Origin: an uncultured Acidobacteriota bacterium
Lineage (GTDB): Bacteria > Acidobacteriota > Thermoanaerobaculia > Gp7-AA8
Reading direction: 5' to 3'
Length of the DNA: 64,000 nt
Assembly: GCA_963822445.1 (NCBI GenBank)
Contig: CAWGHO010000002.1
Coordinates: 2,112,001 to 2,176,000, forward strand
In this document: positions 38,185 through 57,220 of the stretch, piece by piece
Numbering within the stretch: the stretch's first letter is position 1
Layout: every line of letters starts with the position of its first letter
Program-made: the position numbers and the translations under genes
The notes under the pieces: model-generated
Database searches by the model: none
What the model saw: only the letters and a program-made list of their open reading frames with translations
What the model was told of the DNA's origin: nothing

Positions 38185-38521
38185 CGTATCCCCCTCGCAG
38201 TTGACGACATCGCAAGCTTGCGGGCCGCGAGCAGCAAGACGCGCCTCCCGCATGCCCAGGTGTGCAGGCGGTCCTTCACACCCGCCCGCCACGCGCGGTA
38301 GACCGCCTGCACACCTGGGCATCACAACCGCCCGGCGCACGCTCGTCGCGGCCCTGATTTCACGCGCCGCCCACCCTCGCGCGTCGAACTCACGAATGCG
38401 TCCGTGTCACGGCGGTTGCACGTCGCTCCCGCCGATCGGTCGTTAGTCGCGGCAACCGCCGCGCCACGGTGGGGAGCGTGAATTCGACGCACTTCCACCC
38501 CGGTTGCGCTGCTCCCACCCC
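38185..38521. ncRNA. Structured non-coding element X, copy 1 (in C24)
   Basis: Four dispersed copies; perfect 22-bp stem 38252-38273/38301-38322; RNA versus ssDNA nature not established. Confidence 0.6.
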
Positions 38522-38611
38522 GCTCAATCGTTAGCCCGACCAAGAAGAATATGCGAGACGTGTCCCTCCAACCCATAGCACGGGCACCGAAGAGATGCGG
38601 AGGAAAAAGCA

Positions 38612-38896
38612 ATGCCATACACAGCAAAGCAACTTGCGAAGGAAGTGGCAAGCGATCCAGCGCTTGCTGCGAGGATCCAGCAGAACCCGGCGCAGGAAAT
38701 CGCAAATGCGGCAACGCCGCCGCCGCTGAGCGAAGCGACATACAAGATCGTCGTCATCATCCTTGGGCTGGCACTGCTCATCGCGCTTGGCGCTGCCATC
38801 TACCTGAAAGGCGATGTGTCCGATTTCATCGTCGCGGTAGGCTCCGGCGCACTGGGAGCACTCGCCGGCCTTCTGGCTCCGTCGCCAACACAGTAG
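38612..38896 (+). CDS. C24: small 2TM membrane protein
   Basis: GGAGG RBS; two hydrophobic segments. Confidence 0.75.
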   Translation: MPYTAKQLAKEVASDPALAARIQQNPAQEIANAATPPPLSEATYKIVVIILGLALLIALGAAIYLKGDVSDFIVAVGSGALGALAGLLAPSPTQ

Positions 38897-38968
38897 GGCG
38901 GTACCAGCGCTCCAGACGCGTCGTCGGGGTCGTTGATCTACTCCGGTGGCGTGCTACCGTGCGTAAGT

Positions 38969-39277
38969 GTGAGTCGCAAGAGCCTCAGTCTGCTCGCTCT
39001 CCTTCTTCTTACCACCTGCGCTACAACGCCCGATTTGAAGAGTCGCATGGACGCGCTGATCGGGAGAAACATTTCAGACGTCATAGCGGAACGCAAGGTG
39101 TACCCCGACTCGTCAGACGTGCTGCCGAATGGCAACACCGTTTACCGGTTCGCGTCCGGCTCCGGGGGAACGGTTGATCGGTACGGCAACGTCACATCAA
39201 ACGTTTGTAGGGTCTGGTTAGAGTCGAGGCCCGACGGAATTATCGTGAGGTACCGGTACGAGAATTGCCGAGATTAA
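38969..39277 (+). CDS. C24: small putative lipoprotein
   Basis: LLLTTC signal; candidate -10 TACCGT 8 nt upstream. Confidence 0.6.
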   Translation: MSRKSLSLLALLLLTTCATTPDLKSRMDALIGRNISDVIAERKVYPDSSDVLPNGNTVYRFASGSGGTVDRYGNVTSNVCRVWLESRPDGIIVRYRYENCRD

Positions 39278-39315
39278 ACCGCAAACCGTCGTTTCATAGC
39301 TGTTTTTGCATCGCG

Positions 39316-39514
39316 GCCTAACTACTGCCAGAAGCTGGCACGGCCCGGCTTCGGTCCGGCGGCCGAGCCGCCTCGGCCGAACAGTACCGTCGCGGGCGTC
39401 ACGCTAGCTGCAGGTCGCTCCCGCCGAGTGAATCGTTAGTCGCGGCAGCTAGCGTGCCGCGACGGCTTCGGTACGTGGGCCTTGGCCGTGCAGCTTAGGC
39501 GATAGACGTTAGCC
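39316..39514 (+). repeat. attC 24 (family C/D hybrid)
   Basis: GCCTAAC...GTTAGCC. Confidence 0.9.
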
Positions 39515-39534
39515 GGACCGAATATCATCATCGA

Positions 39535-40665
39535 ATGGAACGTCACATTCTCCACCGCCTTCTGTTAGCCAAGTTCTTCATTCAAGACGCCCAGCGCGCG
39601 GCGAAAACGAGCAGCAACGACTTGGCTCTTTCTCGCGTTGTAGTGCATCTTCACGACGCAATCGATAACCTGCTCGGTGCCGTGGCGACGCAACGGCAAG
39701 TTCGTGTCGGCGCGCGCGACGCGATGATGGATGTATTCGCGAAGCTCACGACGGCAGGTCATCTCTCCGTTGGCCGCACAGAACTGGAACAGCTAAATGC
39801 CATGCGAAATGCGATCAAGCACCATGGCGTGCCTCAGAATGCCGCAGCGGTGATCGCCCTACTGCCTGCTCTTAACGACTTCAGCAGTAAGCTGTCAGTA
39901 GAAACGTTTGGTGTTTCCCTCGAAGCCGTCAGTTTGGCCGACCTGATCGAAGACGAGACCACACGAGATGAACTTGGGGCCATTCAAGGCCTGATCAGCA
40001 CTGGCGATTTCAAAACAGCTCTCGATAAGCTTGGCCTCTTACGCTTTCAGCGTCTTCAGGCCCACAGCCTACGGATGATCGCCGTCCTAAAGAAGCACAT
40101 GCAAAAGCTCGAGCTTCGTGATCAGGTGCTGGTCTTTCCCAAAGAAGATCGCGCTGAGACCAAGCTCGAATGCCTGGAATTGGGTATAAACCCAGACGAA
40201 CTTACTCGCTTTGAATGGCTCACGCCCAAGTACGGCTATCGGGATATGGAGACCGAGACGCTCATAGCAAAGCGTGAGGGTCTCTTCTGGCATCACCGTA
40301 ACTGGACCTTTGAGAACGCTATGTTTTGCTTCAACTTTCTTGTGAGCTATTTTGCCGCGAAGCAGAGAACACCGTACACGTCTTCGGTGTATCGGCGCGA
40401 CTTCAAACTGAACGAGATCGCATTCATCCGGCCATCGAATCTCGTGAGCCATGACGGAACGGTCCGCCGCGCGTATCTGGCAGGTGAGTGTGTCAATTGC
40501 TGGTCGATGGACCTTGTGGATGGGGAGTGGCAAAACCACGACGAGGCAACCGCGCGCGTGCGCATCTACGAAGTTGACGGCTCGACGATTGACGGACATG
40601 TTGTGAAAGCCGACGTTACCGTCGGGCCTGACTTCGAGGAGATGTTCGATCAACCCGCCGGCTAA
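39535..40665 (+). CDS. C25: HEPN-like domain protein
   Basis: LHDAIDNLL...LNAMRNAIKHHG (RxxxxH). Confidence 0.7.
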   Translation: MERHILHRLLLAKFFIQDAQRAAKTSSNDLALSRVVVHLHDAIDNLLGAVATQRQVRVGARDAMMDVFAKLTTAGHLSVGRTELEQLNAMRNAIKHHGVPQNAAAVIALLPALNDFSSKLSVETFGVSLEAVSLADLIEDETTRDELGAIQGLISTGDFKTALDKLGLLRFQRLQAHSLRMIAVLKKHMQKLELRDQVLVFPKEDRAETKLECLELGINPDELTRFEWLTPKYGYRDMETETLIAKREGLFWHHRNWTFENAMFCFNFLVSYFAAKQRTPYTSSVYRRDFKLNEIAFIRPSNLVSHDGTVRRAYLAGECVNCWSMDLVDGEWQNHDEATARVRIYEVDGSTIDGHVVKADVTVGPDFEEMFDQPAG

Positions 40666-40858
40666 CTACTGCCAGCACCTGTCGGCGGGCCGTTCGTCGC
40701 GCCCGGCGGCCGAGCCGCCTACACCGCTCCGAGACGCACGGCGTCACGCCGCTTGCAGATCGCGCCCGCCGATTGAATCGTTAGTTGCGGCAAGCGGCGC
40801 GCCGCTTTCGCCGCTCGCACGCGGGGCCTCGCCGCAGGTGAGGCGATAGACGTTAGCC
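40660..40858 (+). repeat. attC 25 (family B)
   Basis: GGCTAAC...GTTAGCC. Confidence 0.9.
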
Positions 40859-41014
40859 CGACCTGAAGGGAGGACCTCGGTTTGGCTTGTCTCAATCATC
40901 GACCGGCATACTCGAGTCGCGTCGATGACTCTTGCGGCGCGGACACGCGAAGTGCATGCTACATACCTTTCACGCTCTGTCTGCCCGTCCGAACGAAGTG
41001 AAGGAGGAGGACCG

Positions 41015-41347
41015 ATGCCGTTCTACCTAACGCAATTCAGCTACACGCCAGCGACATGGGCGAGACTGATCAAGAGTCCGGAAGATCGTCGAGTGGCAGC
41101 CACACAGTACATCGAAGCAGTCGGGGGAAAGTTGCACGGATTTTGGTATGCCTTCGGCGGACACGACGCATACATCCTGTGGGAGGCCCCCGATAACGTG
41201 TCGATGGCAGCTACTGCGCTCGCGATCAGCGCTGGTGGGGCGCTTAGTTCCTTTGAGACGACCGTCTTGCTTACGGTTGAGGAAACACTTGCAGCCATGC
41301 AAAAGGCCTCATCGATCGCGTATTGGCCACCGGGCGAAAAAGGATAG
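41015..41347 (+). CDS. C26: GYD-domain protein
   Basis: YLTQFSYT...PEDRR...GGKLHGFWYAFGGHD; GGAGG RBS. Confidence 0.85.
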   Translation: MPFYLTQFSYTPATWARLIKSPEDRRVAATQYIEAVGGKLHGFWYAFGGHDAYILWEAPDNVSMAATALAISAGGALSSFETTVLLTVEETLAAMQKASSIAYWPPGEKG

Positions 41348-41473
41348 AAGCGAATAGACAGCAACTGAAATCCGGCAGAGTGATCACGATATGACCTGCC
41401 ATTCAAACCGGATTCTTACGCGTGGTAATCTCTGCGTCGGCTACATTCCGCCACTCCATAGTACAATTGGTGG

Positions 41474-41659
41474 GTGAGTGACGATCGAGGACGCAATTTC
41501 GGTGGTGGCGCCATTGCCGCGGCACTCGTCGTAGGAACAGCCGCGGTAATTCTTGCTGTCGTTAGTAGCATCTCGCTGCGTTTTGAGGCTGCAGCGGTAG
41601 CATTGTTGGCGGCTGCCGTCGCGTTCGTCGGTGTTTCTCACGCTATCTTTCGAGACTGA
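41474..41659 (+). CDS. C26: small 2TM protein
   Basis: Two hydrophobic helices; TACAAT 6 nt upstream. Confidence 0.55.
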   Translation: MSDDRGRNFGGGAIAAALVVGTAAVILAVVSSISLRFEAAAVALLAAAVAFVGVSHAIFRD

Positions 41660-41704
41660 GGTAGTAGGCGACGATTGCGCCGACGATTGCGCCGCGAGCC
41701 CGCG

Positions 41705-41902
41705 GGCTAACTACTGCCAGGAGCTGTCGGCGGGCCGTTTGCCGCGCCCGGCGCTGAAGCGCCTCGTGAAGCGTTGATTGGCCGGCGGCACGCCGGCCGA
41801 CATGCTCTCGCGCCGCTGATCGCGGCGCGAACACGGCAGCCGTCGCGCCGTGAACCGCACGCACGCGGGGCCTCGCCGCAGCTCAGGCGATAGACGTTAG
41901 GC
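41705..41902 (+). repeat. attC 26 (family A)
   Basis: GGCTAAC...GTTAGGC. Confidence 0.9.
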
Positions 41903-42065
41903 CGACTCGACACTACGCAGACACACACATGGAAAGGCACCCTTAGGTGGGAATTCAGCGCGCTGCTCGCCATTTTACGACGAACGACTAGCCTCGCCAG
42001 AAGCCGCGCGGCCTAGGATTCCTTGGGTAGGGAAGTCGCCGTCCCGAGCACTCCTAAGATACGGA

Positions 42066-42599
42066 ATGGGGGTAACCATGTCAGACAGCGGCGGCCCAGG
42101 CGACGACACTCACGTCGAAGGAGAGATAACACTGCGCTGGAGGGCTGACCGTATCTTGGAGCACCTAAAAACACTCGTGGAGCAGTCGAACGAGTCGTCA
42201 CGCGACTCCGCTCGCGCCTTCTATCAGGCTATGATCTCACTCTCGGCGGGAGCTATCGTCGTCTCGGTGACTTTCGCCGAGAAGATCGCACCCCCACCGC
42301 GGGAGGCTACGGAACTTCTCGTTATCTCATGGGCACTGTTCACTTTCAGCCTTCTTTCGATTCTGGTCGCGTTCCGCCAACTCGGCAACGAACGAGCCGC
42401 GGCAGATGTCCGAATGAACGTCTGGGTATACAAGATCTGTTTTGGCGACTTGGAGGGCGACACGATTGAGAAGTCACTCGGGCCTCCGTTCGAGCCACCG
42501 CGGCCGATTCTGTCCAAGATCCTTGTCGCTGCGTCAATCGCGTCTTTCGGTCTGGGTGTTAGCGTACTCACGTGGTTTGCCGGGGCGAATCTCAAATAG
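42066..42599 (+). CDS. C27: hypothetical membrane protein (3 TM)
   Basis: ISLSAGAIVVSVTF, SWALFTFSLL and a C-terminal TM. Confidence 0.7.
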   Translation: MGVTMSDSGGPGDDTHVEGEITLRWRADRILEHLKTLVEQSNESSRDSARAFYQAMISLSAGAIVVSVTFAEKIAPPPREATELLVISWALFTFSLLSILVAFRQLGNERAAADVRMNVWVYKICFGDLEGDTIEKSLGPPFEPPRPILSKILVAASIASFGLGVSVLTWFAGANLK

Positions 42600-42623
42600 G
42601 AGAGTCGGCGGAGGCGAGAGCTG

Positions 42624-42914
42624 ATGGCAACAAAGGGAGTGCCAGTCAGTAAGCTTCTGTGTTCGACAGGCGAACCTGGCGAGTCGTTCGACTTTTCAGC
42701 TCTCGCGCTCTTTCGGAACTCTACAGTGTTCGTCAGTGTCGGCACGCTAAGTGTCGTCATTCAGCTGTCGCCGCTGTGGACATCGCACGTGCCACGTTGG
42801 TTCCGAGATGGCGCTACGATAAACTTGGAGTTGGCTTATGAACGAAGCGTCGGAAGTCACGATGCCTCCTCTCACTATGGCCTTACACTCGTATTGAATT
42901 GGCTTGGATTCTGA
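42624..42914 (+). CDS. C27: hypothetical protein
   Basis: GGAGG upstream; ends before the attC; weak support. Confidence 0.35.
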   Translation: MATKGVPVSKLLCSTGEPGESFDFSALALFRNSTVFVSVGTLSVVIQLSPLWTSHVPRWFRDGATINLELAYERSVGSHDASSHYGLTLVLNWLGF

Positions 42915-42933
42915 CGTTGTGGTGGGTGGCGCG

Positions 42934-43130
42934 GCCTAACTACTGCCAGAAGCTGGCACGGCCCGGCTTCGGTCCGGCGGCCGAGCCGCCTATATCGTCG
43001 TAGTTTGGGCGGCGTCACGCTGGTTGCAATTCGCCAGTCGCGGCTGCGCAACTCCTCGGCGGCAACCGGCGCGCCGCTCTCCGTCTCCACGTGGGCCCTG
43101 GCCGTGCAGCTTAGGCGATAGACGTTGGGC
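42934..43130 (+). repeat. attC 27 (family C)
   Basis: GCCTAAC...GTTGGGC. Confidence 0.9.
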
Positions 43131-43428
43131 GGACTCGGCACGAAGAGGTAGGCCCGACTTCCATTTACGCGTTGGCAGTCGCACCGACCGAAGCGGCGGA
43201 GCCGCGCGCCAAGGCGTCCGCCACAATTGTTCGTCGTGGTACCCGCCCATCCGCCGGCTCGTCCCACGTGCAGCGCGCGCGAAACACATTCTTTCGTAGG
43301 CCGGTCGCAATCGCCGCGATTGCCGCGATCCCCGCCGGCCTGTCGGCCGAGCACGCATTCCGCGTCCGTCACCATTCGGCGCGCGCGCTGCTCCCAAGTG
43401 CGCAAAGTTATGCGTGTGGCCGCCCAAC
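43124..43428. ncRNA. C28: ORF-less cassette family Y, copy 1
   Basis: Four similar cassettes; 12-bp stem 43270-43281/43380-43391 enclosing a variable segment. Confidence 0.6.
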
Positions 43429-43611
43429 AACTCACAGCAGCTGTCGCGGCCCGGCTTCGGCTCGGCGGCCGAGCCGCCTAGGCCGAACAGTACCGGCGCG
43501 GCGTCACGCCGGCTGCAGTTCGGTTCATTCGTTAATCGCCGGCAGCCGGCGCGCCGCGCTGCCGTAGCCACGCGGGCCCTGGCCGCGCAGCTGAGTGAGA
43601 TGACGTTGGGC
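43422..43611 (+). repeat. attC 28 (family D, Y-specific)
   Basis: GCCCAAC...GTTGGGC; L arms ctcac[ag]cagctg/cagctgagtgag. Confidence 0.9.
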
Positions 43612-43943
43612 GGACGAAACTCCATCGTTGCCAGCGTCGGAATACCTATGAACGTAGATGGACCGTTGTCGGATCATGCTCGCTCAACGCATGGCTGTTC
43701 TAGCCGTGAGGCGGTCGATCATGGATCCGCCTCGCGCGGCCGTTTTCGAGCGGCGACGGCGCGGTGTGGTTGAGCGGTTCTGTCGTCGATCCTCGGCGCT
43801 ATTCGCAAAGGATTCGATGTGCGTGTCGAACCTTGCCTGCCAGTCGGGGTCAGTCCTGAAGGTGACCAAGTAGACGCTCATCCGTTCCGACTTGCTCGCC
43901 CAGGAAGCGCCGTGCGCCGGTTGGCGTTAGAATGTCGAGCGAC

Positions 43944-44162
43944 ATGCGAATAGCATCAGGAAAAGTAATCCACGGTCAGATCGTTTACGAAGGTGAATTG
44001 CCTGAGGGCGCAGAGGTTACGCTCCTTGCGCACGACCTTGAGGACACTTTCGAGGTCAGTCCCGAACTCAAGGCGGTCCTTCTCGAATCGATTGCCCAGT
44101 GCGAGCGTGGGGAAACTATTTCAGCTGACGAGCTCATTCGGGAGATGCTCAGTCGCGAATGA
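43944..44162 (+). CDS. C29: putative antitoxin
   Basis: Small acidic ORF overlapping the start of the ParE/RelE gene. Confidence 0.7.
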   Translation: MRIASGKVIHGQIVYEGELPEGAEVTLLAHDLEDTFEVSPELKAVLLESIAQCERGETISADELIREMLSRE

Positions 44163-44470
44163 GGGCTCCGCTTCAAGTTGAAATCAGCGAGCTCGCAGCT
44201 CAGCACATTCGGGAACTGGAATCATGGTGGCGGCTAAACCGCACGGCTGCGCCCAACGCAGTTCGAGAGGAGCTTCAGCGTGTTTTGCGGCTCATCACGT
44301 TGACGCCGCTCATTGGTCGCCGAGCGACAGACGTCGATCTTGAGAACGTTCGCCGCATCCACATTTCGAGAATTTGGCACTTCCTCTACTACCGCGTCGT
44401 TGACGATCCTGAGCGTATTGAACTTGTTGCGCTCTGGTCCGACAGTCGCGGCGAAGGGCCACCGATTTGA
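44159..44470 (+). CDS. C29: RelE/ParE-family toxin
   Basis: VEISELAAQHI...PLIGR...FLYYRV...IELVALW. Confidence 0.8.
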   Translation: MRAPLQVEISELAAQHIRELESWWRLNRTAAPNAVREELQRVLRLITLTPLIGRRATDVDLENVRRIHISRIWHFLYYRVVDDPERIELVALWSDSRGEGPPI

Positions 44471-44484
44471 GATCTCTCGTCGCC

Positions 44485-44681
44485 GCCCAACTACTGCCAG
44501 GAGCTGTCGGCGGGCTGGCTTCGTGGCCCGTCGGCCGAGCCGACTCGGCAGACTCCAAGTCGCGCGGCGTCACGGCCGTTGCAGTTCGCTCCTGCCGGTA
44601 AGCGTTGGTCGCGGCAACGGCCGCGCCGCTCTGCTGCTTGCGCCGGTGAACCCGCCGCAGCTCAGGCGATAGACGTTAGCC
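44485..44681 (+). repeat. attC 29 (family B variant)
   Basis: GCCCAAC...GTTAGCC. Confidence 0.9.
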
Positions 44682-44870
44682 GGACGAAGGCAAGAAACAC
44701 TGATGCCACTCGACATGCCATACTCGGGCCTCGTCCACAGCCGACAAAACGTGCGGGGGAGGGGGCGAGGGACGTCGTCCGCGTCCAGGCGCTACGGCTG
44801 AGGGTAGGGGTTGTCCTCGCCGCGACACTCCTTCGTTGAAGGACACCAACAGAGCGATCATGGAGGTGCT

Positions 44871-45584
44871 ATGACGGACATTCCGACACCGACTCCTGCT
44901 GGTTCGACGAGCCCCGCTAACTCCCAACTCTCGGCGCCAGGCAAGTCGCTAGACGAGCGTGTTCGCGATCTCGAGGAAAACGCGAAGAAGGTCGCGCAGC
45001 GCGCCACAATAATCGCCGTACTGGCGGCTCTTTTTGGCGGAGGAGGGCTTGCCGGTACGATACAGTGGCTCGCTGGTAGTAGGCTGCGCGAAGCCGAGGT
45101 AACCTTAAGCGACCAGCAGAAAAAGATTAACGAGCAAGACATGCGTCTAAAAAGCCAGGACATGCGGCTGAAGGAACAGGACGCGCGGCTCAAGCAGCAA
45201 CTTGGCGAGCATGACGTTGCTCTAAAGGCTCAGGCGCGACAAATCGGAGAGTACGAAGTAAAGCTGAAGGGCTTAGCCTTACACCGCGACGAGTTCAACG
45301 ATCGGCTTTCGTCGTTTAACGCAGCCACGGCGTCGCTAGAACGGGGCATCGCTGCCGCGCGCCAATCTGGTTCTACGCAGGGCATTAACGCTTTGGTGCA
45401 AGAACTCATTCAGCAAAACCGCGAATTCTCGCAGTTTGCCGCACAGACTAGACGATATGTCGAAGAGTTGCCTGGCGCGCCAGGGTGGTATCGCCAAGCG
45501 GTTGCACAGGCAGAGGCGGCTTCACGTCAGCATGACCAGCACCTACAAAGAATCAAGAATGAATTATCCGGGCCGGGCTCCTAA
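44871..45584 (+). CDS. C30: TM-anchored coiled-coil protein
   Basis: GGAGG RBS; heptad repeats EQDMRLK/SQDMRLK/EQDARLK. Confidence 0.75.
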   Translation: MTDIPTPTPAGSTSPANSQLSAPGKSLDERVRDLEENAKKVAQRATIIAVLAALFGGGGLAGTIQWLAGSRLREAEVTLSDQQKKINEQDMRLKSQDMRLKEQDARLKQQLGEHDVALKAQARQIGEYEVKLKGLALHRDEFNDRLSSFNAATASLERGIAAARQSGSTQGINALVQELIQQNREFSQFAAQTRRYVEELPGAPGWYRQAVAQAEAASRQHDQHLQRIKNELSGPGS

Positions 45585-45590
45585 AACGCC

Positions 45591-45787
45591 GGCTAACTAC
45601 TGCCAGAAGCTGGCACGGCCCGGCTTCGGTCCGGCGGCCGAGCCGCCTACATTCTCTCCAGCTTGGTGGCGTCACGGCGGTCGCAGTTCGGCAGGCGTTG
45701 CACGCAACTTCTCGCCGGCAACCGCCGCGCCGCTCAGGCTTCGGCACGCGGGCCCTGGCCGTGCAGCTTAGGCGATAGACGTTAGGC
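45591..45787 (+). repeat. attC 30 (family C)
   Basis: GGCTAAC...GTTAGGC. Confidence 0.9.
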
Positions 45788-45894
45788 CGACGTACTCACA
45801 TTAGGGTGGCGGCGAGCTCTCTATGAAGCTCCGCAGTTGTGCGTCGCGCGTCGAAATTGTCGGCAATCCGTCCGTGGCATCGTCGTGCTTCGCG

Positions 45895-46240
45895 GCACGA
45901 TTCCCCCTCGCAGCTGACATCGCCTCAAGAGTGCGGGCCGCGAACAGCAAAACGCGCCACCCGCATGCGCAAGCGTTCAGTCGGTCCCTTCACGCCCTCC
46001 CACCACCCGCGGTAGACCGACTGAACGCTTGCGCATCACGCCCACCCGGCGCACGCTCATCGCGGCCCTGGCATCGACGCCCCTCCCGCCGACGCGCGTC
46101 GAACTCACGGATGCGCGCCGTGACACGGCGGTCGCAGATCGCTCCAGCCGACGGGTCGTTCGTCGCGGCAACCGCCGCGCCCCGGGCAGGGGAGCGTGAA
46201 TTCGACGCGCTCACACCCGTACCGACGCCGCTCCCGCCCC
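45895..46240. ncRNA. Structured non-coding element X, copy 2 (in C31)
   Basis: Perfect 22-bp stem 45965-45986/46015-46036. Confidence 0.6.
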
Positions 46241-46390
46241 TTGCAGGCCGCGAGATACAGGTTGGCCCGACGAACAGAAGTCGAAGTGAAATACGCCGGT
46301 GAACGCGCAGCGAGACGGGAATCAGTCAAGCGCGGCATTCGACGGGTTGACAGTCGTAACATTGGGCGACCCACTAGCCAAGAGGCTGTC

Positions 46391-47298: not shown

Positions 47299-47496
47299 GC
47301 CTAACTACTGCCAGAAGCTGGCACGGCCCGGCTTCGGTCCGGCGGCCGAGCCGCCTACGCCGTCGCAAGCGCGGCGGCGTCACGCCGGCTGCAGATCGCG
47401 ACTCGGTTCTTCGAACGTCATTCGCGGCAACCGGCGCGCCGCTCCGGCTTCGGCACGCGGGCCTTGGCCGTGCAGCTTAGGCGATAGACGTTAGGC
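47299..47496 (+). repeat. attC 31 (family C)
   Basis: GCCTAAC...GTTAGGC. Confidence 0.9.
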
Positions 47497-48789: not shown

Positions 48790-48816
48790 GGACGCAAGGT
48801 CGGGTAAGATCGAAAT

Positions 48817-50088
48817 ATGTCCGTCCCTGTCATTTACGGGAAGATTCTTGCACTTTCGCGTGAGTACTCCTGGCGTCCAATTCCAGATGGTCTCGATCGG
48901 CAGTTCTTCACCGGTGGAGATCCACGCCTTCCGTTCTCCGGAATCGGCCTGACGTGGTGGCTTACCCGTCGAGGCTACAAGACTCTTCGCGACTTGGCTC
49001 GTCTTGCCGTCGAACACCTATCGCATCTAGGCTTAGATCGTGACTCCGTCGAGGACATCATCGAGGATGTGTTTCAGAAAAACGCCACAAACAGAGCGTT
49101 ATTCGTCGCCGACTCGTTCATGCACCACCCTAACCTCTTCGAATCACGCGCCATAGGGGAGTCAGCCTTTGCGTCAGCGATATGGTCGCATATCGACCGC
49201 GCGCTCGCAGACGGGGTGGCCGACTGGCTCGTAGTGGTGCCAGTTCCGCGTATCAAGTCCGTCTCGCACGAGCTCGGTCATGATGGCCTCGCGCTTGTGG
49301 CCGCCGGAGACGACGAAACATGGCGCCGCGTAAGTGCCGATTTCCGGAGCGCGCAATTCTGGAACTCACGCACTGGTCATGCCGATCCGAGAGATGCAGA
49401 GATTATGCGGCCAGTCACCACGGATACGTGGCTCACATGTCGGGCCAAGGGCACGAAAGCAGGTGCGAACCTCGTTGCCCGTGAACGTATGCGCACCTTC
49501 GTCGCTCTTCTCCTTGCGAGCTATTACGCCGGCAACGTGCACTTTCTAACGAAGAGCATGGCAGACGTACCAACGTACGGCACGCACTTTCCTGAGACAG
49601 GGACGCGTACCGGTGTGGGCTACGTGCAGATGCACGTCGGCGAGATCATCCCTCCCTTGTTGGACGATGTTGTCATAACACCTGATCACGTCGACGCCTG
49701 CCGAGCGTGGTATGCACGGCAGCTAATCGCTGCGCCAGATCTCCAGAAGCGTGCCTTTGTTGCCACTCAATTTGTGCATTACGCTATAGTCGCCGGCGAT
49801 CTCGAGAGATTCATTCACTTCTTTATCGCCCTGGATGCCTTGTTCGGCGTGCGTGGCAATGTCGAGAACACAATCGCCGACGGCGTCGAACGCACTTTTG
49901 CCGGCGACCCAGCGTGGAAGCAGCGTGCGCACCGGTTATTCAACCTACGCAATGAGTTACTTCACGGTGGCTCGAGCCGAATTCAAGCATGGGACGGCTA
50001 CGACGATTACGAGAGGCACTTTGCCTCGGAACCTGACGATGACGTCGCGATCGCGGCGTTAGTTGCCGTTCGTAACTATCCGGTTTAG
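48817..50088 (+). CDS. C33: ApeA-like HEPN protein
   Basis: FIALDALFG...LFNLRNELLHG. Confidence 0.8.
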   Translation: MSVPVIYGKILALSREYSWRPIPDGLDRQFFTGGDPRLPFSGIGLTWWLTRRGYKTLRDLARLAVEHLSHLGLDRDSVEDIIEDVFQKNATNRALFVADSFMHHPNLFESRAIGESAFASAIWSHIDRALADGVADWLVVVPVPRIKSVSHELGHDGLALVAAGDDETWRRVSADFRSAQFWNSRTGHADPRDAEIMRPVTTDTWLTCRAKGTKAGANLVARERMRTFVALLLASYYAGNVHFLTKSMADVPTYGTHFPETGTRTGVGYVQMHVGEIIPPLLDDVVITPDHVDACRAWYARQLIAAPDLQKRAFVATQFVHYAIVAGDLERFIHFFIALDALFGVRGNVENTIADGVERTFAGDPAWKQRAHRLFNLRNELLHGGSSRIQAWDGYDDYERHFASEPDDDVAIAALVAVRNYPV

Positions 50089-50098
50089 GTGCGGCGCC

Positions 50099-50297
50099 GC
50101 CCAACTACTGCCAGGAGCTGTCGGCGGGCCGTTTGCCGCGCCCGGCGCTGAAGCGCCTCGGCCGGTGTCGATTGGCCGGCGGCACGCCGGCCGACATGCT
50201 CTCGCGCCGCTGATCGCGGCGCGAACACTGCAGCCGTCGCGCCGCGCAACCGCACGCGCGTGGGGCCTCGCCGCAGCTCAGGCGATAGACGTTGGGC
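50099..50297 (+). repeat. attC 33 (family A)
   Basis: GCCCAAC...GTTGGGC. Confidence 0.9.
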
Positions 50298-50596
50298 GGA
50301 CTCGGCACTGCATCAGCGTAGGACGGACATCCATTTACGCGTTGGCAGTCGCACCGGCCGAAGCGGCAGAGCCGCGCGCCAAGGCGTCCGGCACAATTTT
50401 AGTCGTGGTACCCACCCTTCCCGCCGGCTTGTCGCACGTGCAGCGCGCGCGGACGCACGATTCGCGTAGCGAGTGACTACAGTAACTCAAGACGCAGCGG
50501 CAAAGCGGGCCTTCGGCCACGCGCGCTCCGCGCCATGCACCATTCGGCGCGCGCGCTGCTTCCAAGCGCGCAAAGTCATGCGTGTGGCCGCCCAAC
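50291..50596. ncRNA. C34: ORF-less cassette family Y, copy 2
   Basis: Same scaffold as C28; stem 50440-50451/50548-50559. Confidence 0.6.
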
Positions 50597-50778
50597 AACT
50601 CACAGCAGCTGTCGCGGCCCGGCTTCGGCCCGGCGCTGAAGCGCCTGGGCCGAACAGTACCGGCGCGGCGGCACGCCGGCCGCAATTCGGTTCATTCGTT
50701 AATCGCCGGCAGCCGGCGCGCCGCGCTGCCGTAACCACGTGGGCCCTGCCCGCGCAGCTGAGTGAGATGACGTTAGCC
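50590..50778 (+). repeat. attC 34 (family D, Y-specific)
   Basis: GCCCAAC...GTTAGCC. Confidence 0.9.
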
Positions 50779-50904
50779 CGACGAACGACTGCGCTCAGAC
50801 AGAGCCGCCACCCGACACGTACTGCATCGGGTTCGCTTGCGCCCTGAACCTTGGAAGAGATCGCAACTTCGCTTGGCGCTAGACTTCCCGTACTATTCGA
50901 TGTC

Positions 50905-51654
50905 ATGGACATTCGAGGGAAGAAGAACCCGTGGGCATCGGGTCCCGGTGAGATTCTTCGTCACGGAATTGAGCTGTTACGCCACGACACGGACACAAAC
51001 CGCCGCCTGGCGATGATCAGTATCGACAACGCGGTCGAACTGATGATGAAGACGTTTCTTGGCCTGCCACGGCGTATCTCTGGATTGAACATTCCGCGCA
51101 AACAGTTCCAAGAAATTGCAGAGAGTTTTCCCGCGCTTCTCGACGCGTTGGAACAGCATGCAAGCGATCGACTTGAAGGCGTTGATCTCGGAACCATCGA
51201 GTGGTATCACCGACTCCGAAATGAGCTGTACCACCAGGGAAATGGTCTCACGGTCGAGCGAGACAAGGTCGAAATTTACGCTGAACTCGCGAATATTCTT
51301 TTTAATAATCTGTTCGGCAGCCAACTTGTCGAACCTCCAACGTTAAAAGCTGGCTTGCTCGGTCAGTTCATGACCCTGTGGCCGATTTTCGAGCGTGCTA
51401 TTCGCATTCGGTCGCTACAGTTTGAGCCAGTCAGGACAGAGCGGCGGCCCAGACTTGGGATTGAAGCAGTCGAGATCCTTCACCGCGCCGGCGAACTCAC
51501 TGACTCGGAAGTATCGGAGATCCGTGAACTTCGATATGTGCGTAACAGAGCTGCGCACGCTGAACCGGGGTGGGAATCAGAGCTTACGCCAGAAAAGGTG
51601 AAGCGCCTTGAACAACTGGCGAGCAAGTTTCCCTCGCCACCAATCGCGGGCTAA
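50905..51654 (+). CDS. C35: protein with two HEPN-like RxxxxH motifs
   Basis: SIDNAVEL...RNELYH and RNRAAH. Confidence 0.7.
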   Translation: MDIRGKKNPWASGPGEILRHGIELLRHDTDTNRRLAMISIDNAVELMMKTFLGLPRRISGLNIPRKQFQEIAESFPALLDALEQHASDRLEGVDLGTIEWYHRLRNELYHQGNGLTVERDKVEIYAELANILFNNLFGSQLVEPPTLKAGLLGQFMTLWPIFERAIRIRSLQFEPVRTERRPRLGIEAVEILHRAGELTDSEVSEIRELRYVRNRAAHAEPGWESELTPEKVKRLEQLASKFPSPPIAG

Positions 51655-51847
51655 CTACTGCCAGGAGCTGTCGGCGGGCCGTTTGCCGCGCCCGGCGCTG
51701 AAGCGCCTCGTTCAGCGCCGATTGGCCGGCGGCACGCCGGCCGACATGCTCTCGCGCCGCTGGCCGCGGCGCGGACACTGCAGCCGTCGCGCCGCGCCCC
51801 CGCTCGCACGTGGGGCCTCGCCGCAGCTCAGGCGATAGACGTTAGGC
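51649..51847 (+). repeat. attC 35 (family A)
   Basis: GGCTAAC...GTTAGGC. Confidence 0.9.
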
Positions 51848-51911
51848 GGTCGTCTGCACGAACGCTCCGCGTCCATGTAGATTTTTACTACGAGGACTCG
51901 TCCTTCAATCG

Positions 51912-52260
51912 GCACGCTTCCTCCGCGCAGCTGAATCCATCGCCAGGTTGCGGGGCCGCGACCAGCAAAGCGCGCCTGCCCGCACGCGCAGTTGTGCTCC
52001 ATTCGGCCCCTTCACACCCGCCCGCCACCCGCGGTAGGCCGAATGGAGCACAACTGCGCTTCACACCCACCCGGCGCATGCTCGTCGCGGCCCTGACGGA
52101 GCGCACCACCCGCCCGCGCGCGACGAACTCCTGAGTGCATCGGTGTCACCGCGGTTGCAGGTCCGCTCCCGCCGACCTGTCGGTGGTCGCGGCAACCGCG
52201 GCGCCACCGATGCGCTCAGGAATTCGCCGCGCTTACAGCCGGCGACCGCTGCTCCCGCCC
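51912..52260. ncRNA. Structured non-coding element X, copy 3 (in C36)
   Basis: Perfect 23-bp stem 51986-52008/52037-52059 with a different sequence from the other copies. Confidence 0.6.
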
Positions 52261-52442
52261 GTGTCTTTTGGGGCGGCGCTTACATGCGAATCCCATTTTC
52301 GGCCGCTGTCGCTAGGCGGACGAAGGAACATCCGGTCACAGCGCTTCTACCAGATATCGAACATGCAGCTCAGCGCGGTGTAGACTTACCGACGTGCGTA
52401 CCGTCAAGATCGAGACATTACGCGCAAGGCGGAGAACATAGC

Positions 52443-53390
52443 GTGTCTCCAAAACTATCATTCTTCATCAGTTACGCACACGCCGACCGATCACTTGCGG
52501 TAGCTATTGCCGATGAACTTGAGCGTGCTGGTATGCGCGTGTGGGTCGATGAAGGCGAGTTGCGCGCTGGGGATTCGATCGTAGAGCGCATCGCCGATGC
52601 TGTCGACCAGGTAGACTTTGTCGTAGCGCTCGTCACGCGACGCGCTGTAGCCTCGAATTGGTGCAAGAAGGAATTGGCGCTCGCGATACAGGGAGGCTTG
52701 CGCGAGGGCAGCGTCCGATTGTTGCCATTGCGGGTTGACGACGTTGAGATGCCTCCGTCGTTACGTGATCTTTTCCACCTTCATGTCGATTCTCGGAACC
52801 CTATGCCCGTCGTACGTAAGCTCGTCGCCGACGCGTGGTCGCATTTTCGTGAACAGCAGTTGGATTCATGCTTTCTCGGCAGAGTTGTGTCAGTTTTACA
52901 ACCGACAACAACTCTCAGCGCCGAGCGACAGCAAGCACTAAAGCTTGCTCTGCGTAGCAATGACGACGACTACAACTCGGCCGCGCGCGCTGAAAAATTG
53001 CTAGCGAAGGATCTAAGTGTGCCAGCCGCTGAAATTCTTTACGAAGATGCATTGGATGACGCATTAACCGATCGTAACGCTGGCTTCGGCGTATCGGGGC
53101 TCGCAAGGCTTGGTCCGCTGGCCGCGCCGTGGCTGTATCAAATGCTGAGCCATGACGATGATCGTGTCGTCCGTGACGCTTTTGACGCTCTCGCGCATAC
53201 ACGTTCGATAATTTTCTCCGATATGCGGGAATACCTGCTGGATACCATCGATGCTATTGTTAAACACGCGGATTGGTCCGCCTGCGCAAAGAGATTGAAA
53301 GAGTCGTGCAGTGACGAAGATAGAACGGACAGGCTAGCGTTCATGCTGGGCTACGCAAGCGACTACCGCAGGAACTTTGCCAAAGGCTAA
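52443..53390 (+). CDS. C36: TIR domain + helical (HEAT-like) C-terminus
   Basis: FFISYAHAD, VWVDEGEL..GDSI, SNWCKKEL; GGAG RBS. Confidence 0.85.
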   Translation: MSPKLSFFISYAHADRSLAVAIADELERAGMRVWVDEGELRAGDSIVERIADAVDQVDFVVALVTRRAVASNWCKKELALAIQGGLREGSVRLLPLRVDDVEMPPSLRDLFHLHVDSRNPMPVVRKLVADAWSHFREQQLDSCFLGRVVSVLQPTTTLSAERQQALKLALRSNDDDYNSAARAEKLLAKDLSVPAAEILYEDALDDALTDRNAGFGVSGLARLGPLAAPWLYQMLSHDDDRVVRDAFDALAHTRSIIFSDMREYLLDTIDAIVKHADWSACAKRLKESCSDEDRTDRLAFMLGYASDYRRNFAKG

Positions 53391-53459
53391 TGGTTGTCGT
53401 GTCGCTGCGTCACAGCCAGAGACCAAGGGTGCAGGGTTACGCAACCGCCGGGACTCGCC

Positions 53460-53655
53460 GCCTAACTACTGCCCGAAGCTGTCACGGCCCGGCTTCGGTC
53501 CGGCGGCCGAGCCGCCTACTTCAGCGCCAGCTTCACGGCGTCACGCCGGTTGCAGATCGGCAGGCGTTGCATCAACTTCTCGCCGGCAACCGCCGTGCCG
53601 CTGGGGCTTCGGCACGTGGGCCCTGGCCGTGCAGCTTAGGCGATGGACGTTAGCC
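53460..53655 (+). repeat. attC 36 (family C)
   Basis: GCCTAAC...GTTAGCC. Confidence 0.9.
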
Positions 53656-53905
53656 GGATGTCCATCGAGCTTGCCGAGTAGCGTGTTTTCTATGAACCGT
53701 GAGTTCACGTTCCCATTGGCGTTAGATTCTTTCCGGACCGAACCGCGTCGAACGCCTCTCCACGCTTCTCCGACGGTGCCGTTTGACCTCAACTCGGGTC
53801 GTTTGGCGGTCAGGGCACGCGCATCGCGACACGCCCGATGCTCCAGACAGCCCGCGACGGCCGCGAAGGCTTCCTCGCCGCTCGGACCTGCGATACCGTA
53901 AGACC

Positions 53906-54393
53906 GTGGCGCCATCAACGTATCTAGACAGCAACGTGATCAGCTACCTCACAGCTCGGCCAAGCCGCGACGTGGTAAACCTTGCGCATCAGCAAGTTAC
54001 GCGTGAGTGGTGGGACCGGCCTGGGACCGGCACCGGCATGGTTTCGAGCTGCACGTCTCGGAACTCGTGCTGTTCGAGATCGGTCGAGGCGACGCCGGGG
54101 CGGCGCAAGCACGTCTCCAACTGGTTCAGGGGCTACCGGTGCTGCAAGTTACCAACCCGGCACGTGCTCTGGCTGATCGTATCTTCCGAGCGACGACGCT
54201 TCCGGACAAGGCGGCGTCAGACGCACTCCACGTAGCGATCGCGGCGGTGAACGGTATGGATTTTCTGTTGACGTGGAACTGTACTCATATCGCGAACGGC
54301 GTGGTTCTGAAGATCGTTAACGCAGTCTGCCGCGAGAACGGCTATGAACCACCAATTGTCTGTACTCCAGAGGAGCTGCTGACGTCATCATGA
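53906..54393 (+). pseudogene. C37: PIN-domain toxin frameshifted by an 11-nt duplication
   Basis: [15 protein letters not shown] in one frame and SELVLFE..DALHVA..LLTWNCTH in another; tgggaccggc duplicated at 54011 and 54022. Confidence 0.8.
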
Positions 54394-54587
54394 ATGCCAT
54401 AGATGAAGATCCTGTCGTTGCAGAAATCCGGGCAGTCCGTCGCGAGCTATCGGAGCGTTTCGGCGACGATATTGACGCTCTTTGTGATTTCCTTGTCGAA
54501 CAAGAGCAGAAGCACACAGACCGTTTGGTAAATCATCCACCGAAGGCTCTGCAGCGGGCAACCGAAAGTAGAATCTGCACCGGCTAA
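54390..54587 (+). CDS. C37: small antitoxin-like partner
   Basis: DPVVAEIRAVRRELS; overlaps the PIN stop. Confidence 0.75.
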   Translation: MNAIDEDPVVAEIRAVRRELSERFGDDIDALCDFLVEQEQKHTDRLVNHPPKALQRATESRICTG

Positions 54588-54777
54588 CTACTGCCAGCAG
54601 CGGACGGCGGGCCGTTCGTTGGCCCGGCGGCCGAGCCGCCTCCAGCACTCAAAGCCGCACGGCGTCACGCCGCCTGCAGCTCGCGCCCGCCGAGAGCTCG
54701 TTAGTTGCGGCAAGCGGCGCGCCGCTTCCTGCTAGGCACTCGGGGCCTCGCCGCCGCTGAGGCGATAGACGTTGGGC
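54582..54777 (+). repeat. attC 37 (family B)
   Basis: GGCTAAC...GTTGGGC. Confidence 0.9.
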
Positions 54778-55074
54778 GGACTCCGCACGAAGACGTAGGC
54801 CCGACTTCTATTTTCGCGCTGGCAGTCGCACCGACTGAAGCGGCAGAGCCGCGCGCCAAGGCGTCCGCCACAATTGTCCGTCGTGGCTCCCGCCCGTCCA
54901 CCGGCTTGTCGCGCCTGCAGCGCGCGCGAAGCTGATTTTTCGTGGGTTTGTCGCAATCTCCGCGAAAGTCACCATCCAAGCCGGCCTGTCGGCCGAGCAC
55001 GCATTCCGCGTCCATCACCATTCGGCGCGCGCGCTGCTCCCAAGCGCAGAAGCTTATGCGTGTGGCCGCCCAAC
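54771..55074. ncRNA. C38: ORF-less cassette family Y, copy 3
   Basis: Same scaffold as C28. Confidence 0.6.
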
Positions 55075-55257
55075 AACTCACAGCAGCTGTCGCGGCCCGG
55101 CTTCGGCCCGGCGGCCTAGCCGCCTAGGCCGAACAGTACCGGCGCGGCGTCACGCCGGCTGCAGTTCGGTTCGTTCGCTAATCGCCGGCAGCCGGCGCGC
55201 CGCCCTGCCGTAGCCACGCGGGCCCTGGCCGCGCAGCTGAGTGAGATGACGTTGGGC
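55068..55257 (+). repeat. attC 38 (family D, Y-specific)
   Basis: GCCCAAC...GTTGGGC. Confidence 0.9.
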
Positions 55258-55306
55258 GGACGCAGGCACGCTCGTCTATACTCTGTCCGGCGAAAGGAAC
55301 CATCGG

Positions 55307-55849
55307 ATGAGCGGTGAGGCGCGGATCAAGCTATCGATCCGGGATGGGGTACTCGAGATCGAAGGGTCGGAGGCCTTTGTCTCCGCTCAGGCCGAAGCAT
55401 TCCGGGACGTCGTAGCTTCGCTGCTTCACCGCCCGCACGACGGCGGCGCCGACAATCAAAGTCGCGTGGCGTCCCAGCAGGAATCCGCCGGAGGACAAAC
55501 CCACGCCGGCGCGCTATCCGATTACGACAGCGTATTTGTGATGGCGGACGGCAAGGTGCAGATTCTGCAAGGCATACCCGGCAATGGTAAGGCGGGGAAA
55601 ACCATGAATGCCGCGTTGCTGTGTTTGTACGCCAACGAACTCCAAGGCAACACCGAGGTTGGTTTTGACACTATTCGTGACCTGTGTCAGGCGCACGGCT
55701 TTCTCGACGGCTCCAACTTCGCCGCAACGCTGAAAGATGCGAAAGAGTATCTCATCGTGACGGGAAGCAGTAGACGCCTCATGGCGAAACTGACGGTCCC
55801 TGGACGCAAGGAGGCCCAGCGCTTGGCTGATGGTCTGAAAACGGCGTGA
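55307..55849 (+). CDS. C39: hypothetical protein (N-terminal LEIEG motif, C-terminal wHTH-like)
   Basis: IKLSIRDGVLEIEGSEAFV; ...KLTVPGRKEA; AAGGA RBS. Confidence 0.75.
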   Translation: MSGEARIKLSIRDGVLEIEGSEAFVSAQAEAFRDVVASLLHRPHDGGADNQSRVASQQESAGGQTHAGALSDYDSVFVMADGKVQILQGIPGNGKAGKTMNAALLCLYANELQGNTEVGFDTIRDLCQAHGFLDGSNFAATLKDAKEYLIVTGSSRRLMAKLTVPGRKEAQRLADGLKTA

Positions 55850-56592
55850 AAGCGGAAGGCCTTCTCAAAGCAAAATATCCGGCCGCGCTCGTGGACGCGC
55901 TTCTCGCTGCCTACCTCGAGATCGAACGCAACTATGTGCTCAAGAAGTGGAAGGCGAGCGAGCTGGATTCCGGACATTTTGTTGAGGCGTCGCGACGCAT
56001 CCTTGAGCACGAGCTCACCGGTTCTCATACTCCACTAAACCGCGCGCTCTCCTCATTTACTGACGCTGTTTTGAAGCAGTTCGAGAGCGCGACCGGTGAC
56101 GAGTCGCTCCGTCTTCTAATTCCACGAGCGCTTAAGGCTATCTACAACATCCGTAACAAACGCGGCGTCGGTCATATCGGAGCCGTGTCTCCGAACGAAA
56201 TGGATTCAACGTACATCCTATACACGTGCAAGTGGGTTCTGGCCGAGCTCGTGCGGCTCGCGTCGGGTCTTCAGCCGCACGAGACCCAGCATGTTATGGA
56301 TACGATTGTCGAGCGGCGCATCAGCGTTCTCTGGAAGGAAGCCGACGTCACGGCGGTGCTCGACCCTGGCATGTCAGCCAAAGAGCAGGCCTTGGTTCTG
56401 CTGTACGACCAAAGTCCTCAAGCGGAAGACGAACTCCGCGCGATAACGGAGTACAAGAATCCCTCGAAGTTTCGCGCGCTGCTGAAGGAGCTGCACCGGA
56501 AGAAGTTAATCTTCCGTGCTGACACTGGTAAGTGCATTATCCTGCCGCCGGGAATCACGGAGGCGGAGCGCATTCTCGCGTCCAGAAGGTAG
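55846..56592 (+). CDS. C39: HEPN-like protein with a C-terminal wHTH-like domain
   Basis: GHFVEASRR...IYNIRNKRGVGH; overlaps the upstream stop. Confidence 0.75.
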   Translation: MKAEGLLKAKYPAALVDALLAAYLEIERNYVLKKWKASELDSGHFVEASRRILEHELTGSHTPLNRALSSFTDAVLKQFESATGDESLRLLIPRALKAIYNIRNKRGVGHIGAVSPNEMDSTYILYTCKWVLAELVRLASGLQPHETQHVMDTIVERRISVLWKEADVTAVLDPGMSAKEQALVLLYDQSPQAEDELRAITEYKNPSKFRALLKELHRKKLIFRADTGKCIILPPGITEAERILASRR

Positions 56593-56596
56593 CGCC

Positions 56597-56786
56597 GCCC
56601 AACTACTGCCAGAAGCTGGCAGCGGGCCGTTTGCCGCGCCCGGCGGCCGAGCCGCCTACCGCGTCGCGAGACGCATGGCGTCACGCCGCTTGCAGATCTC
56701 GTCTTTCGTGAATCGCGGCAAGCGGCGCGCCGCTCTACCCGCACGCGCGCGGGGCCTCGCTGCAGCTTAGGCGATAGACGTTAGGC
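56597..56786 (+). repeat. attC 39 (family B)
   Basis: GCCCAAC...GTTAGGC. Confidence 0.9.
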
Positions 56787-56877
56787 CGACAAACATGCCT
56801 TAGCGTTGATGCGCGCAATCTATGAAGCTCTGCGCACTTGCACGTCGAGTCCTTCTTCGCATGGTCGTTCCTTCGCG

Positions 56878-57220
56878 GCACGTTCCCCCTCGCAGCTGAC
56901 CGTGTCGCGAGAAGGCGGGCCGCGACCAGCAAAACGCGCCTCCCGCATGCGCAAGCGTTCAGCTGGTCCCTTCACACCCGCCCACCACCCGCGGTAGACC
57001 GGCTGAACGCTTGCGCATCACAACCACCCGGCGCACGCTCGTCGCGGCCCTGACTTCGCGCAACACCCTCCCTCGCGCGTGGAACTCACGAATGCGTGCG
57101 TGACACGGCGGTTGCACATCGCTCATGCCGGAGGTCACCTTCGTCGCGGCAACCGCCGCGCCACGGCAGAGGAGCGTGAATTCGACGCGCTCCCACCCGT
57201 GCCGACGCTGCTCCCGCCCT
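56878..57220. ncRNA. Structured non-coding element X, copy 4 (in C40)
   Basis: 22-bp stem 56947-56968/56997-57018 with one G-T pair. Confidence 0.6.

Follow-up and report, generated by a model that had tools for sequence, protein, structure and literature searches.

Element X, a folded module at the front end of integron cassettes in an uncultured Acidobacteriota bacterium

A 64,000-nt stretch of the genome of an uncultured Acidobacteriota bacterium (assembly GCA_963822445.1, contig CAWGHO010000002.1, positions 2,112,001 to 2,176,000; hereafter the window) carries an integron in which four cassettes open with a structured non-coding element of about 340 nt, here called X. X was found to be a conserved, covarying fold, placed at a fixed distance behind the crossover site of the cassette and ending sharply where unrelated cargo begins. 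The best explanation, given a probability of about 40%, is that X is a cis-acting folded module of single-stranded DNA (ssDNA) at the far end of a cassette frame, and that it is reused, as is the frame, in making cassettes. X, Y, M0 and REPIN-A to REPIN-D are working names.

The first-pass annotation of the window had placed four copies of X, and all four were recovered, with a mean column identity of 74% including flanks. A profile search of the 6.0-Mb genome gave eight full copies, all within the array and none elsewhere; the four additional ones lie at 76680, 87273, 89819 and 106091 in window-offset coordinates (hereafter offset). The other genome hits were only matches of about 65 nt to the inner hairpin of attC (66 hits, 91 with a broader profile). 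By pattern search, which misses a few further sites, 84 attC sites of about 187-201 nt each were found between window position 8564 and offset 114593. The copy-3 cassette has a duplicate further along the array. The integrase gene and the features of the four cassettes are as follows.

6092-7057, plus strand: integron integrase (TIGR02249, 456 bits against a cut-off of 265), transcribed toward the array
38111-38187, plus strand: start of the copy-1 cassette and type-A leader, with crossover G at 38111, motif M0 near 38130-38146 and, beyond M0, a variable spacer of constant length
38188-38520, minus strand (fold favoured on the bottom strand): X core of copy 1, with closing helix 38197-38201 with 38508-38512, domain 1 at 38222-38354 (loop 38273-38300), inter-domain linker 38367-38375 and domain 2 at 38379-38492 (attC-type inner hairpin 38404-38465)
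38530-38540, plus strand: cassette-start-like site directly behind X; similar sites at 46261-46271 and 52311-52321
39316-39514, plus strand: own attC of the copy-1 cassette, its R'' matching the cassette start
45781-45899, plus strand: start of the copy-2 cassette and longer type-B leader, motif near 45820
45900-46239, minus strand: X core of copy 2, domain 1 at 45935-46068, loop 45987-46014, domain 2 at 46094-46210
47299-47496, plus strand: own attC of the copy-2 cassette
51841-51917, plus strand: start of the copy-3 cassette and type-A leader
51918-52260, minus strand: X core of copy 3, domain 1 at 51953-52093, loop 52009-52036, domain 2 at 52118-52232
53460-53655, plus strand: own attC of the copy-3 cassette, whose cargo is a TIR-domain protein
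56780-56882, plus strand: start of the copy-4 cassette and type-B leader
56883-57219, minus strand: X core of copy 4, domain 1 at 56917-57050, loop 56969-56996, domain 2 at 57075-57190
57248-58222, minus strand: inverted cargo open reading frame (ORF) of the copy-4 cassette
58292-58489, plus strand: own attC of the copy-4 cassette

The structure was analyzed in 45 distinct X cores from this genome, related genomes and metagenomes, after removal of chance hits, exact duplicates and copies without an end anchor (one genome copy among these). The cores were 311-344 nt long, except for one of 233 nt, with a median identity of 54%. On the bottom strand X forms a three-way junction closed by a 5-bp helix, in which G-C pairs were kept in 42-43 of 43 cores and the middle pair was changed on both sides in three. 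One pair exchanged between G.U, A-U and G-C, in 34, 8 and 1 of the 43. Domain 1 forms an elongated rod; its apical stem has a longest perfect run of 10-22 bp and carries a loop of 24-29 nt. The closing motifs of both domains, the three different stem sequences, the C-rich loop and the compensatory changes of copy 3 described in the first-pass annotation were all found as reported there, as were the long apical stems, perfect over 22, 22 and at least 23 bp in copies 1-3 and with one top-strand T.G break in copy 4. In 23 apical hairpins, 98.3% of the cells were paired and two-sided changes numbered 165, where shuffles gave 46 and slid registers 17-34; 18 of these rows had been picked for at least 16 perfect pairs and five were added, a choice that inflates the result. 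Domain 2 ends in an inner hairpin that is the same as the one at the core of the attC interior of this lineage.

The stems are free to vary and the unpaired single-stranded linkers are conserved. One to four copies of GGGYGKGA were present per X (0.17 in shuffles), one of which falls in the loop used as search pattern. The loop begins 82±4 nt into X and arm lengths are constant. Both ends of X are C-rich on the same strand and mutually non-complementary. No conserved ORF was present, as reported earlier: cores free of stops in any single frame numbered at most 17 of 45, and core lengths were spread evenly over the three frames. Four candidate roles were tried and rejected. A three-tier G-quadruplex pattern occurred in the loop in only 14 of 43 cores. 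G-rich 8-mers, considered as KOPS-like or Chi-like genome signals, occurred at 0.96-1.18 times the Markov expectation and showed no consistent strand bias. An influence of X on the upstream attC fold was not apparent, because R-box pairing dropped with any 430-nt extension, in seven X cassettes as in 14 others. The loop as a guide to the L'' box of attC fitted one attC subtype only and was unchanged across subtypes.

The bottom-strand fold favoured in the first-pass annotation is borne out by isolated mismatches, which on that strand were G.T in 133 cases and A.C in 22 (43 cores); attC sites, used as a control, gave 34 and 5. The bottom strand was also lower in energy in 43 of 43 cores. Whether it arose by selection or by deamination, the G.T bias points to a single-stranded bottom strand.

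X started 74-80 nt past a GTTRGS crossover site in 34 of the 45 cores, and such a site was present within 230 nt in 42, preceded by an L'-like box in 37 of these. Longer leaders of 96-215 nt exist, and three cores had no crossover site in reach. The leader consists of a conserved motif and then a spacer, of which the length is kept and the sequence is not. In 31 close pairs the identity was 0.89 in X, 0.82 in the leader motif region, 0.60 in the spacer and 0.50 in the flank behind X, a pattern that shows purifying selection on X. X had been described as a free-standing element of about 340 nt; it is better seen as part of a cassette front end of about 415 nt that is fixed to the crossover.

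The cargo, which occupies 0.6-1.3 kb between X and attC, differed in 38 of 39 pairs of copies at least 85% identical, and the sole close pair with common cargo was a duplicate cassette. Homology past X ended within 0-24 nt in 37 pairs, and at 130 nt in one pair sharing a further non-coding module. At least 44 distinct cargoes have been attached to X, and the boundary is sharp and coincides with the foot of the closing helix. Kin copies are not independent, yet every different cargo requires a separate joining event. The start of the cassette agreed with its own R'' at each of the six variable positions in 7 of 7 X cassettes of the genome and in 57 of 60 ordinary ones, against 12.6% of non-own pairs; the eighth genome X cassette, interrupted by IS481, was left out. 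At outside loci with an attC in reach the match was 10 of 11, against 30% for non-own pairs. Because the start matched its own R'' in 17 of 18 cassettes, X belongs to the cassette frame, and leader, X and distant attC are the ends of one cassette.

The array also holds versions in which X is eroded or missing, and a related gene-less family, Y.

7405-7531, plus strand: first cassette, with full leader and collapsed X, the 5' motif being fused to the inter-domain linker and both domains gone
16463-16530, plus strand: leader-only member of the X leader family; likewise the cassettes starting at 19891, 61234 and 62539
43124-43611, plus strand: gene-less family Y; also 50291-50778, 54771-55257 and 60756-61240, 12 in the array

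Among the 73 leaders outside Y there was a single large cluster, composed of seven X and nine X-less cassettes (38 pairs above threshold, 7.9 expected). At a 2.5% threshold, 7 of the 65 other leaders also had motif M0. Deletions or truncations of domains were seen at 7478-7531, at offset 83488-83663 and at loci L014, L052, L063 and L155; the cassette at offset 83430 retains domain 2 only, and in relatives one domain was lost or cargo was joined inside X. The eroded and leader-only versions thus form a nested series. The Y insert ends with the closing helix and terminal motif of X, 25 nt ahead of its attC. Y is about 490 bp long, with 89% mean column identity and its own attC subtype; three copies stand in tandem at offset 69177-70625, and the copies at 43124 and offset 70138 are identical across 286 nt. 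Y was found in 0 of 123 family genomes by BLAST, with six candidates scored per genome. The first-pass annotation had listed neither Y nor the closing helix, the hairpin shared with attC, the leader of constant length or the eroded forms.

In the explanation preferred here, the excised circle would hold R''-attC-R'-leader-X as one continuous conserved unit of about 610 nt, folding on the bottom strand, and the cargo would be the DNA between the two ends of this unit. New DNA would be joined at the foot of X while the frame is copied or its middle replaced, either by template switching at the hairpin foot or by an enzyme that cuts and joins ssDNA. A protein may bind the repeated G-rich single-stranded motif. 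X would persist since frames with X leave more descendant cassettes, a selfish advantage, and later hairpin deletions would strip X to give ordinary cassettes with or without a leader remnant.

Several observations weigh against this explanation. Deletions ending at the hairpin foot could yield the same sharp junction without any role in capture, and no junction was mapped against a donor: X cargo had no nucleotide match outside the array in this genome or in the 123 family genomes (E<=1e-60). No reverse transcriptase was found (0 PF00078 matches in the 94.7% complete genome), and no joining enzyme was identified. Copies 2 and 4, 86% identical, carry different attC subtypes, so that the interior of the frame is not strictly co-inherited, and a frame model must account for this by exchange among attC interiors. 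All eight genome copies folded better than dinucleotide shuffles (15 per copy and strand), at z -3.4 to -15.6 for the top and -4.1 to -13.5 for the bottom strand, scores that do not separate the strands or prefer the bottom one. The G.T excess, too, may reflect deamination of an exposed strand rather than selection. The occurrence of X is patchy: a covariance model of the apical hairpin of domain 1, which misses X forms in at least genomes G092, G013, G007 and G027, matched in 6 of the 123 family genomes and in 0 of 150 sampled across the phylum, against an integrase match in 61 of the same 123 (a tally including the unpublished genomes G002, G025 and G095, on which no other claim draws). Most array cassettes are without a leader trace. 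Because of this and of the patchiness, the formation of cassettes in general does not require X.

It is possible, if unlikely, that X is instead a single-strand origin or protection signal, at which host RNA polymerase or primase makes the second strand on an excised bottom-strand circle or on incoming ssDNA, so that the cassette survives more often, the changes of cargo being by-products of deletion at the hairpin foot. The strand-specific fold, the conserved loop and base motifs, the free stems and the constant arm lengths fit this role, and selection on X would be accounted for without a capture step. The single-strand origins ssoA and ICEBs1 sso1 are likewise strand-specific stem-loops of a few hundred bases, and the DSO-qacC-SSO module, in which a gene moves between conserved structured flanks, resembles the frame of X (PMC4595007; PMC5037232); structure can outweigh sequence in such origins (PMC4595007). 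The likeness appears to be architectural, as X is tied to attC and no Rep gene or nick site is known here. No plasmid or phage matched X, and a priming site leaves both the 74-80 nt crossover distance and the hairpin shared with attC unexplained.

Another reading, rated a little below the priming site, would make the attC-leader-X unit, as a folded single strand, the template of cassette birth in this lineage. A host ssDNA cut-and-join enzyme would join foreign DNA to both ends of it, possibly a RAYT (REP-associated tyrosine transposase, REP being repetitive extragenic palindromic sequence) reading a loop like that of a REPIN (a hairpin-forming REP doublet), and ordinary cassettes would be stripped descendants.

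That X is a bottom-strand non-coding RNA, antisense to the array and protein-binding via its G-rich motifs, is doubtful. Covarying stems, conserved unpaired segments and the G.U/A-U/G-C exchange at one pair are a classic RNA-like signature, the bottom strand is lower in energy throughout, and PMC8876359 cites regulatory RNAs that come from cassettes lacking an ORF. The promoter would have to fall in the flank on the cargo side, where conservation is absent from base +4 on, and a sigma-70-like site was seen at no copy. GNRA loops occurred in 2 of 104 predicted bottom-strand hairpins and UNCG loops in none, and a gene product has no need of a fixed crossover distance. As the flank that would hold an antisense promoter is not conserved, even where copies are 89% identical, and stable RNA tetraloops are not prominent, the evidence leans towards ssDNA, and X may act as DNA rather than RNA.

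A top-strand leader, giving a promoter or insulating or attenuating toxic defence cargo in a long array, is a poor candidate. The longest downstream ORF was on the top strand in 36 of the 41 copies having one, TIR and FRG proteins are among the cargo, the integrase is directed toward the array, and gene-less cassettes often bear promoters (10.1101/2023.11.21.568050). Yet top-strand stems hold A.C mismatches six times as often as G.T, the leader has no conserved -10/-35, and the cargo is unrelated, inverted in 5 of 41 copies and variable in its distance to the start codon. The first-pass annotation had excluded a 5' untranslated region on the strength of one inverted cargo; the inversion is real, but it is a weak argument alone given the prevailing top-strand ORFs.

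Even less probable is X as a composite REPIN-like element at which a RAYT (HUH) transposase cuts and joins ssDNA. TnpA-REP cleaves ssDNA at CT in the vicinity of hairpins tagged with GTAG, and joins it again (PMC8266576). The genome holds four RAYT-like Y1 genes flanked by inverted repeats or REPs; three of these were scanned and gave 70-74 bits for NF047646, below the 80-bit cut-off. Like REP/REPIN sequences with their TnpA-REP (PMC8266576; PMC3733652), X has a long ssDNA hairpin with a C-rich loop ending in GTAG, as has the REPIN-A family of this genome. REPIN-A hairpins were the best non-X hits of the domain-1 model. The loop motif CCVCCRCCC was found in 13 of 23 REP-A hairpins and 5 of 7 hairpins of the array, compared with 16 of the 265 remaining long hairpins; X loops scored 5.27 with the spacer matrix of REPIN-A, where no shuffle exceeded 2.79. 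The GTAG loop end, the tag required by TnpA-REP (PMC8266576), was present in most copies, partly by selection since the loop was the search pattern for most of them; it lies on the top strand, is absent at L150 and is missing in the G092 copy. Tests of the whole element failed: 15 repeat 13-mers were in common against 24.5 expected, and the best local alignments of X to REPIN-A and REPIN-D were no better than shuffles. REP arms of four families were absent from the array. X lacks tagged palindromic inverted arms and many dispersed extragenic copies, and whereas the arms are the conserved part of REPs, the stems vary in X. A REP origin of X, Y, attC or the leaders as wholes was rejected, as likeness was not above shuffles. 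A REP-D 13-mer in 3 of 9 Y copies is a single short resemblance and was not counted as support. The link of X to REP and RAYT therefore stays a lead, partly supported, in which the loop resembles a REPIN spacer in anchored tests and whole-element tests are negative. Separately, REPIN family A, at C2:335.5-336.1 kb (L034) and genome-wide, comprised 168 arms and 61 dimers with strand-asymmetric C-rich spacers. Three further RAYT-REP sets were seen (L033, L035 and L036), and RAYT flanks in G006 and G028 (L121, L123) carried similar G-rich motifs.

The reading of leader and X as a gene-less mini-cassette, fused to the following cassette after loss of its own attC, is largely refuted and retains very little probability. 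In its favour, fused cassettes have been described (PMC8876359), family Y has no genes at all, and a start-like 11-mer occurred at most 80 nt behind X in 6 of 44 copies (directly behind X in L014), where about 2% of control windows had one. Against it, the own-R'' match expected at 13-30% was found in 17 of 18, copies 1 and 2 match their own R'' by the first start and not the second, 38 of 44 copies have no start-like site, and X directly followed by attC was never seen. The start-like sites behind X are read as occasional secondary events.

The first-pass annotation had recognised no known RNA family, and Rfam 15 gave 0 hits at gathering threshold in the window and in seven diverged loci, with two chance hits only (E 4.5-4.7). 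It had named an Rfam match, a miniature inverted-repeat transposable element (MITE) or dispersed copies as what would speak against it; none of these was found. X had no terminal inverted repeats, target duplication or dispersal of the kind that marks MITEs and insertion sequence (IS) ends. The bridge or seek RNA of IS110/IS1111 adjoins the recombinase gene, and its guide loops vary with the target. It was rejected for X, because none of the 16 PF02371 matches in the genome is in the array and the X loop is constant while attC L boxes differ. Retron, diversity-generating retroelement and group II intron RNAs are likewise not indicated, because no reverse transcriptase was matched. The omega RNA of TnpB goes with a TnpB gene, and 0 PF07282 matches were found in the genome; IscB was not searched for. 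Group IIC-attC introns insert inside attC, and a role for them in cassette formation has reportedly been proposed. They resemble X as structured bottom-strand elements adjoining attC; they differ from it in that X lies outside attC, gave no intron family hit and occurs in a genome without a reverse transcriptase.

With attC sites themselves (PMC5371416) X shares a bottom-strand fold, a purine-rich bottom strand and structure kept despite sequence change, and it contains the inner hairpin of the attC of this lineage. It differs in being 335 nt long, in lacking the R''/R' pair, spacer and L-box layout, and in standing inside the cassette behind the crossover, whereas attC stands at the cassette end. 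No R''/R' boxes close the fold, which is closed by the 5-bp helix with unpaired G-rich ends, and no R'' box was found upstream of X in 45 leaders. Gene-less cassettes of Vibrio and Treponema arrays (PMC1382264; 10.1101/2023.11.21.568050) are, like X, non-coding, multi-copy per array, conserved and lineage-confined. Y is such a cassette, with the terminal helix of X; X, with cargo ORFs behind it, is not gene-less, being a fixed front end before changing cargo and not a whole cassette.

X was also found in other genomes and stands at the front of many unrelated cassettes in soil Acidobacteria. The earlier view of an undescribed structured element with a bottom-strand fold holds in view of the wobble bias and the lack of Rfam matches and dispersed copies; X is not confined to this integron. 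A search with one copy gave matches in 12 of 60 relatives, about eight of them true X forms. The loop pattern found 10 loci in species genomes, eight of them real (six Thermoanaerobaculia, one Acidobacteria gp7 and one labelled Burkholderiaceae), and 41 loci in metagenomes, one by chance; the chance hits L038, L041, L071, L151 and L152 were removed. Invariance of the loop is partly built in by this use as a pattern, and a full copy in G092, found via other anchors, has a different loop. In viral contigs the loop patterns gave 0 hits, and nine hits of two other patterns had no X-profile match. No such leader was described in the literature searched, which included few subscription papers, and supplements on gene-less cassettes could hold related leaders.

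Two tandem X copies of different subtype (L049, L096 in G127:C553, L045 and L037) were separated by about 260-290 nt of short imperfect repeats, and this repeat block also adjoins single X copies elsewhere. Longer non-coding modules with an extra attC-type hairpin stand behind X at L059:1752-1900 and L075:602-1050, the latter adding a second cassette start. At L044:3190-3400 an X cassette is integrated at a non-attC site, directly adjoining an apparent inverted, diverged X remnant. Loci L039 and L068 have a common non-attC sequence before the crossover, probably attI; if so, their X cassettes come first in the array, as does the collapsed X at window position 7405. The presumed attI region of the window, 350 nt between integrase and array (7058-7410), holds several GTT-core sites.

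The array attC sites at 8564-63629 (187-201 nt) are longer than the 57-141 bp range given in PMC5371416 and are assembled from interchangeable inner hairpins; in at least one subtype the extrahelical base of the L box appears to be C, not G, on the bottom strand. Outside the array, contigs C1, C2 and C3 carry scattered attC sites and mini-arrays (e.g. C2:480.9-493.9 kb and C3:1335-1357 kb), none with X. A domain scan of 43 ORFs gave matches including TIR, Mrr, FRG, AAA and Abi_C, the majority being without a match. The cargo at 12068-61400 is rich in defence-type domains (TIR four times, Mrr and AAA_21 twice each, Abi_C, DndB-like and FRG), and many cassettes there have inverted or two-gene cargo. 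The X cassette at offset 76503 has as sole cargo a 21-nt tandem repeat (L001:13130-13380, offset about 77130-77380), open over about 89 codons on the minus strand. Three non-X cargoes, at about 40996-41350, 43925-44470 and 53905-54555, are matched at the nucleotide level (71-83%) by other genomes of the family (L126-L138). Three near-identical IS481-family copies lie in the array at offsets 91354, 99834 and 108430, one beginning right after the crossover bases, and at locus L040 an IS481-like end adjoins the start of an X cassette.

Cassette formation is called largely unknown in PMC5371416 and is open also in PMC8618304. X is a large conserved structure marking one end of the frame of a cassette, and one array preserves intermediate stages of its loss. 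For a direct test, the X system supplies a substrate of about 610 nt and a junction, both defined, as well as candidate enzymes. Even as a priming site or an RNA, X would be a large structured nucleic acid that is new, and its covariation is unusually clear. If the reading of the frame as a template used by a RAYT were true, it would tie together two questions, namely how cassettes arise and what the RAYT-REPIN system does for its host.

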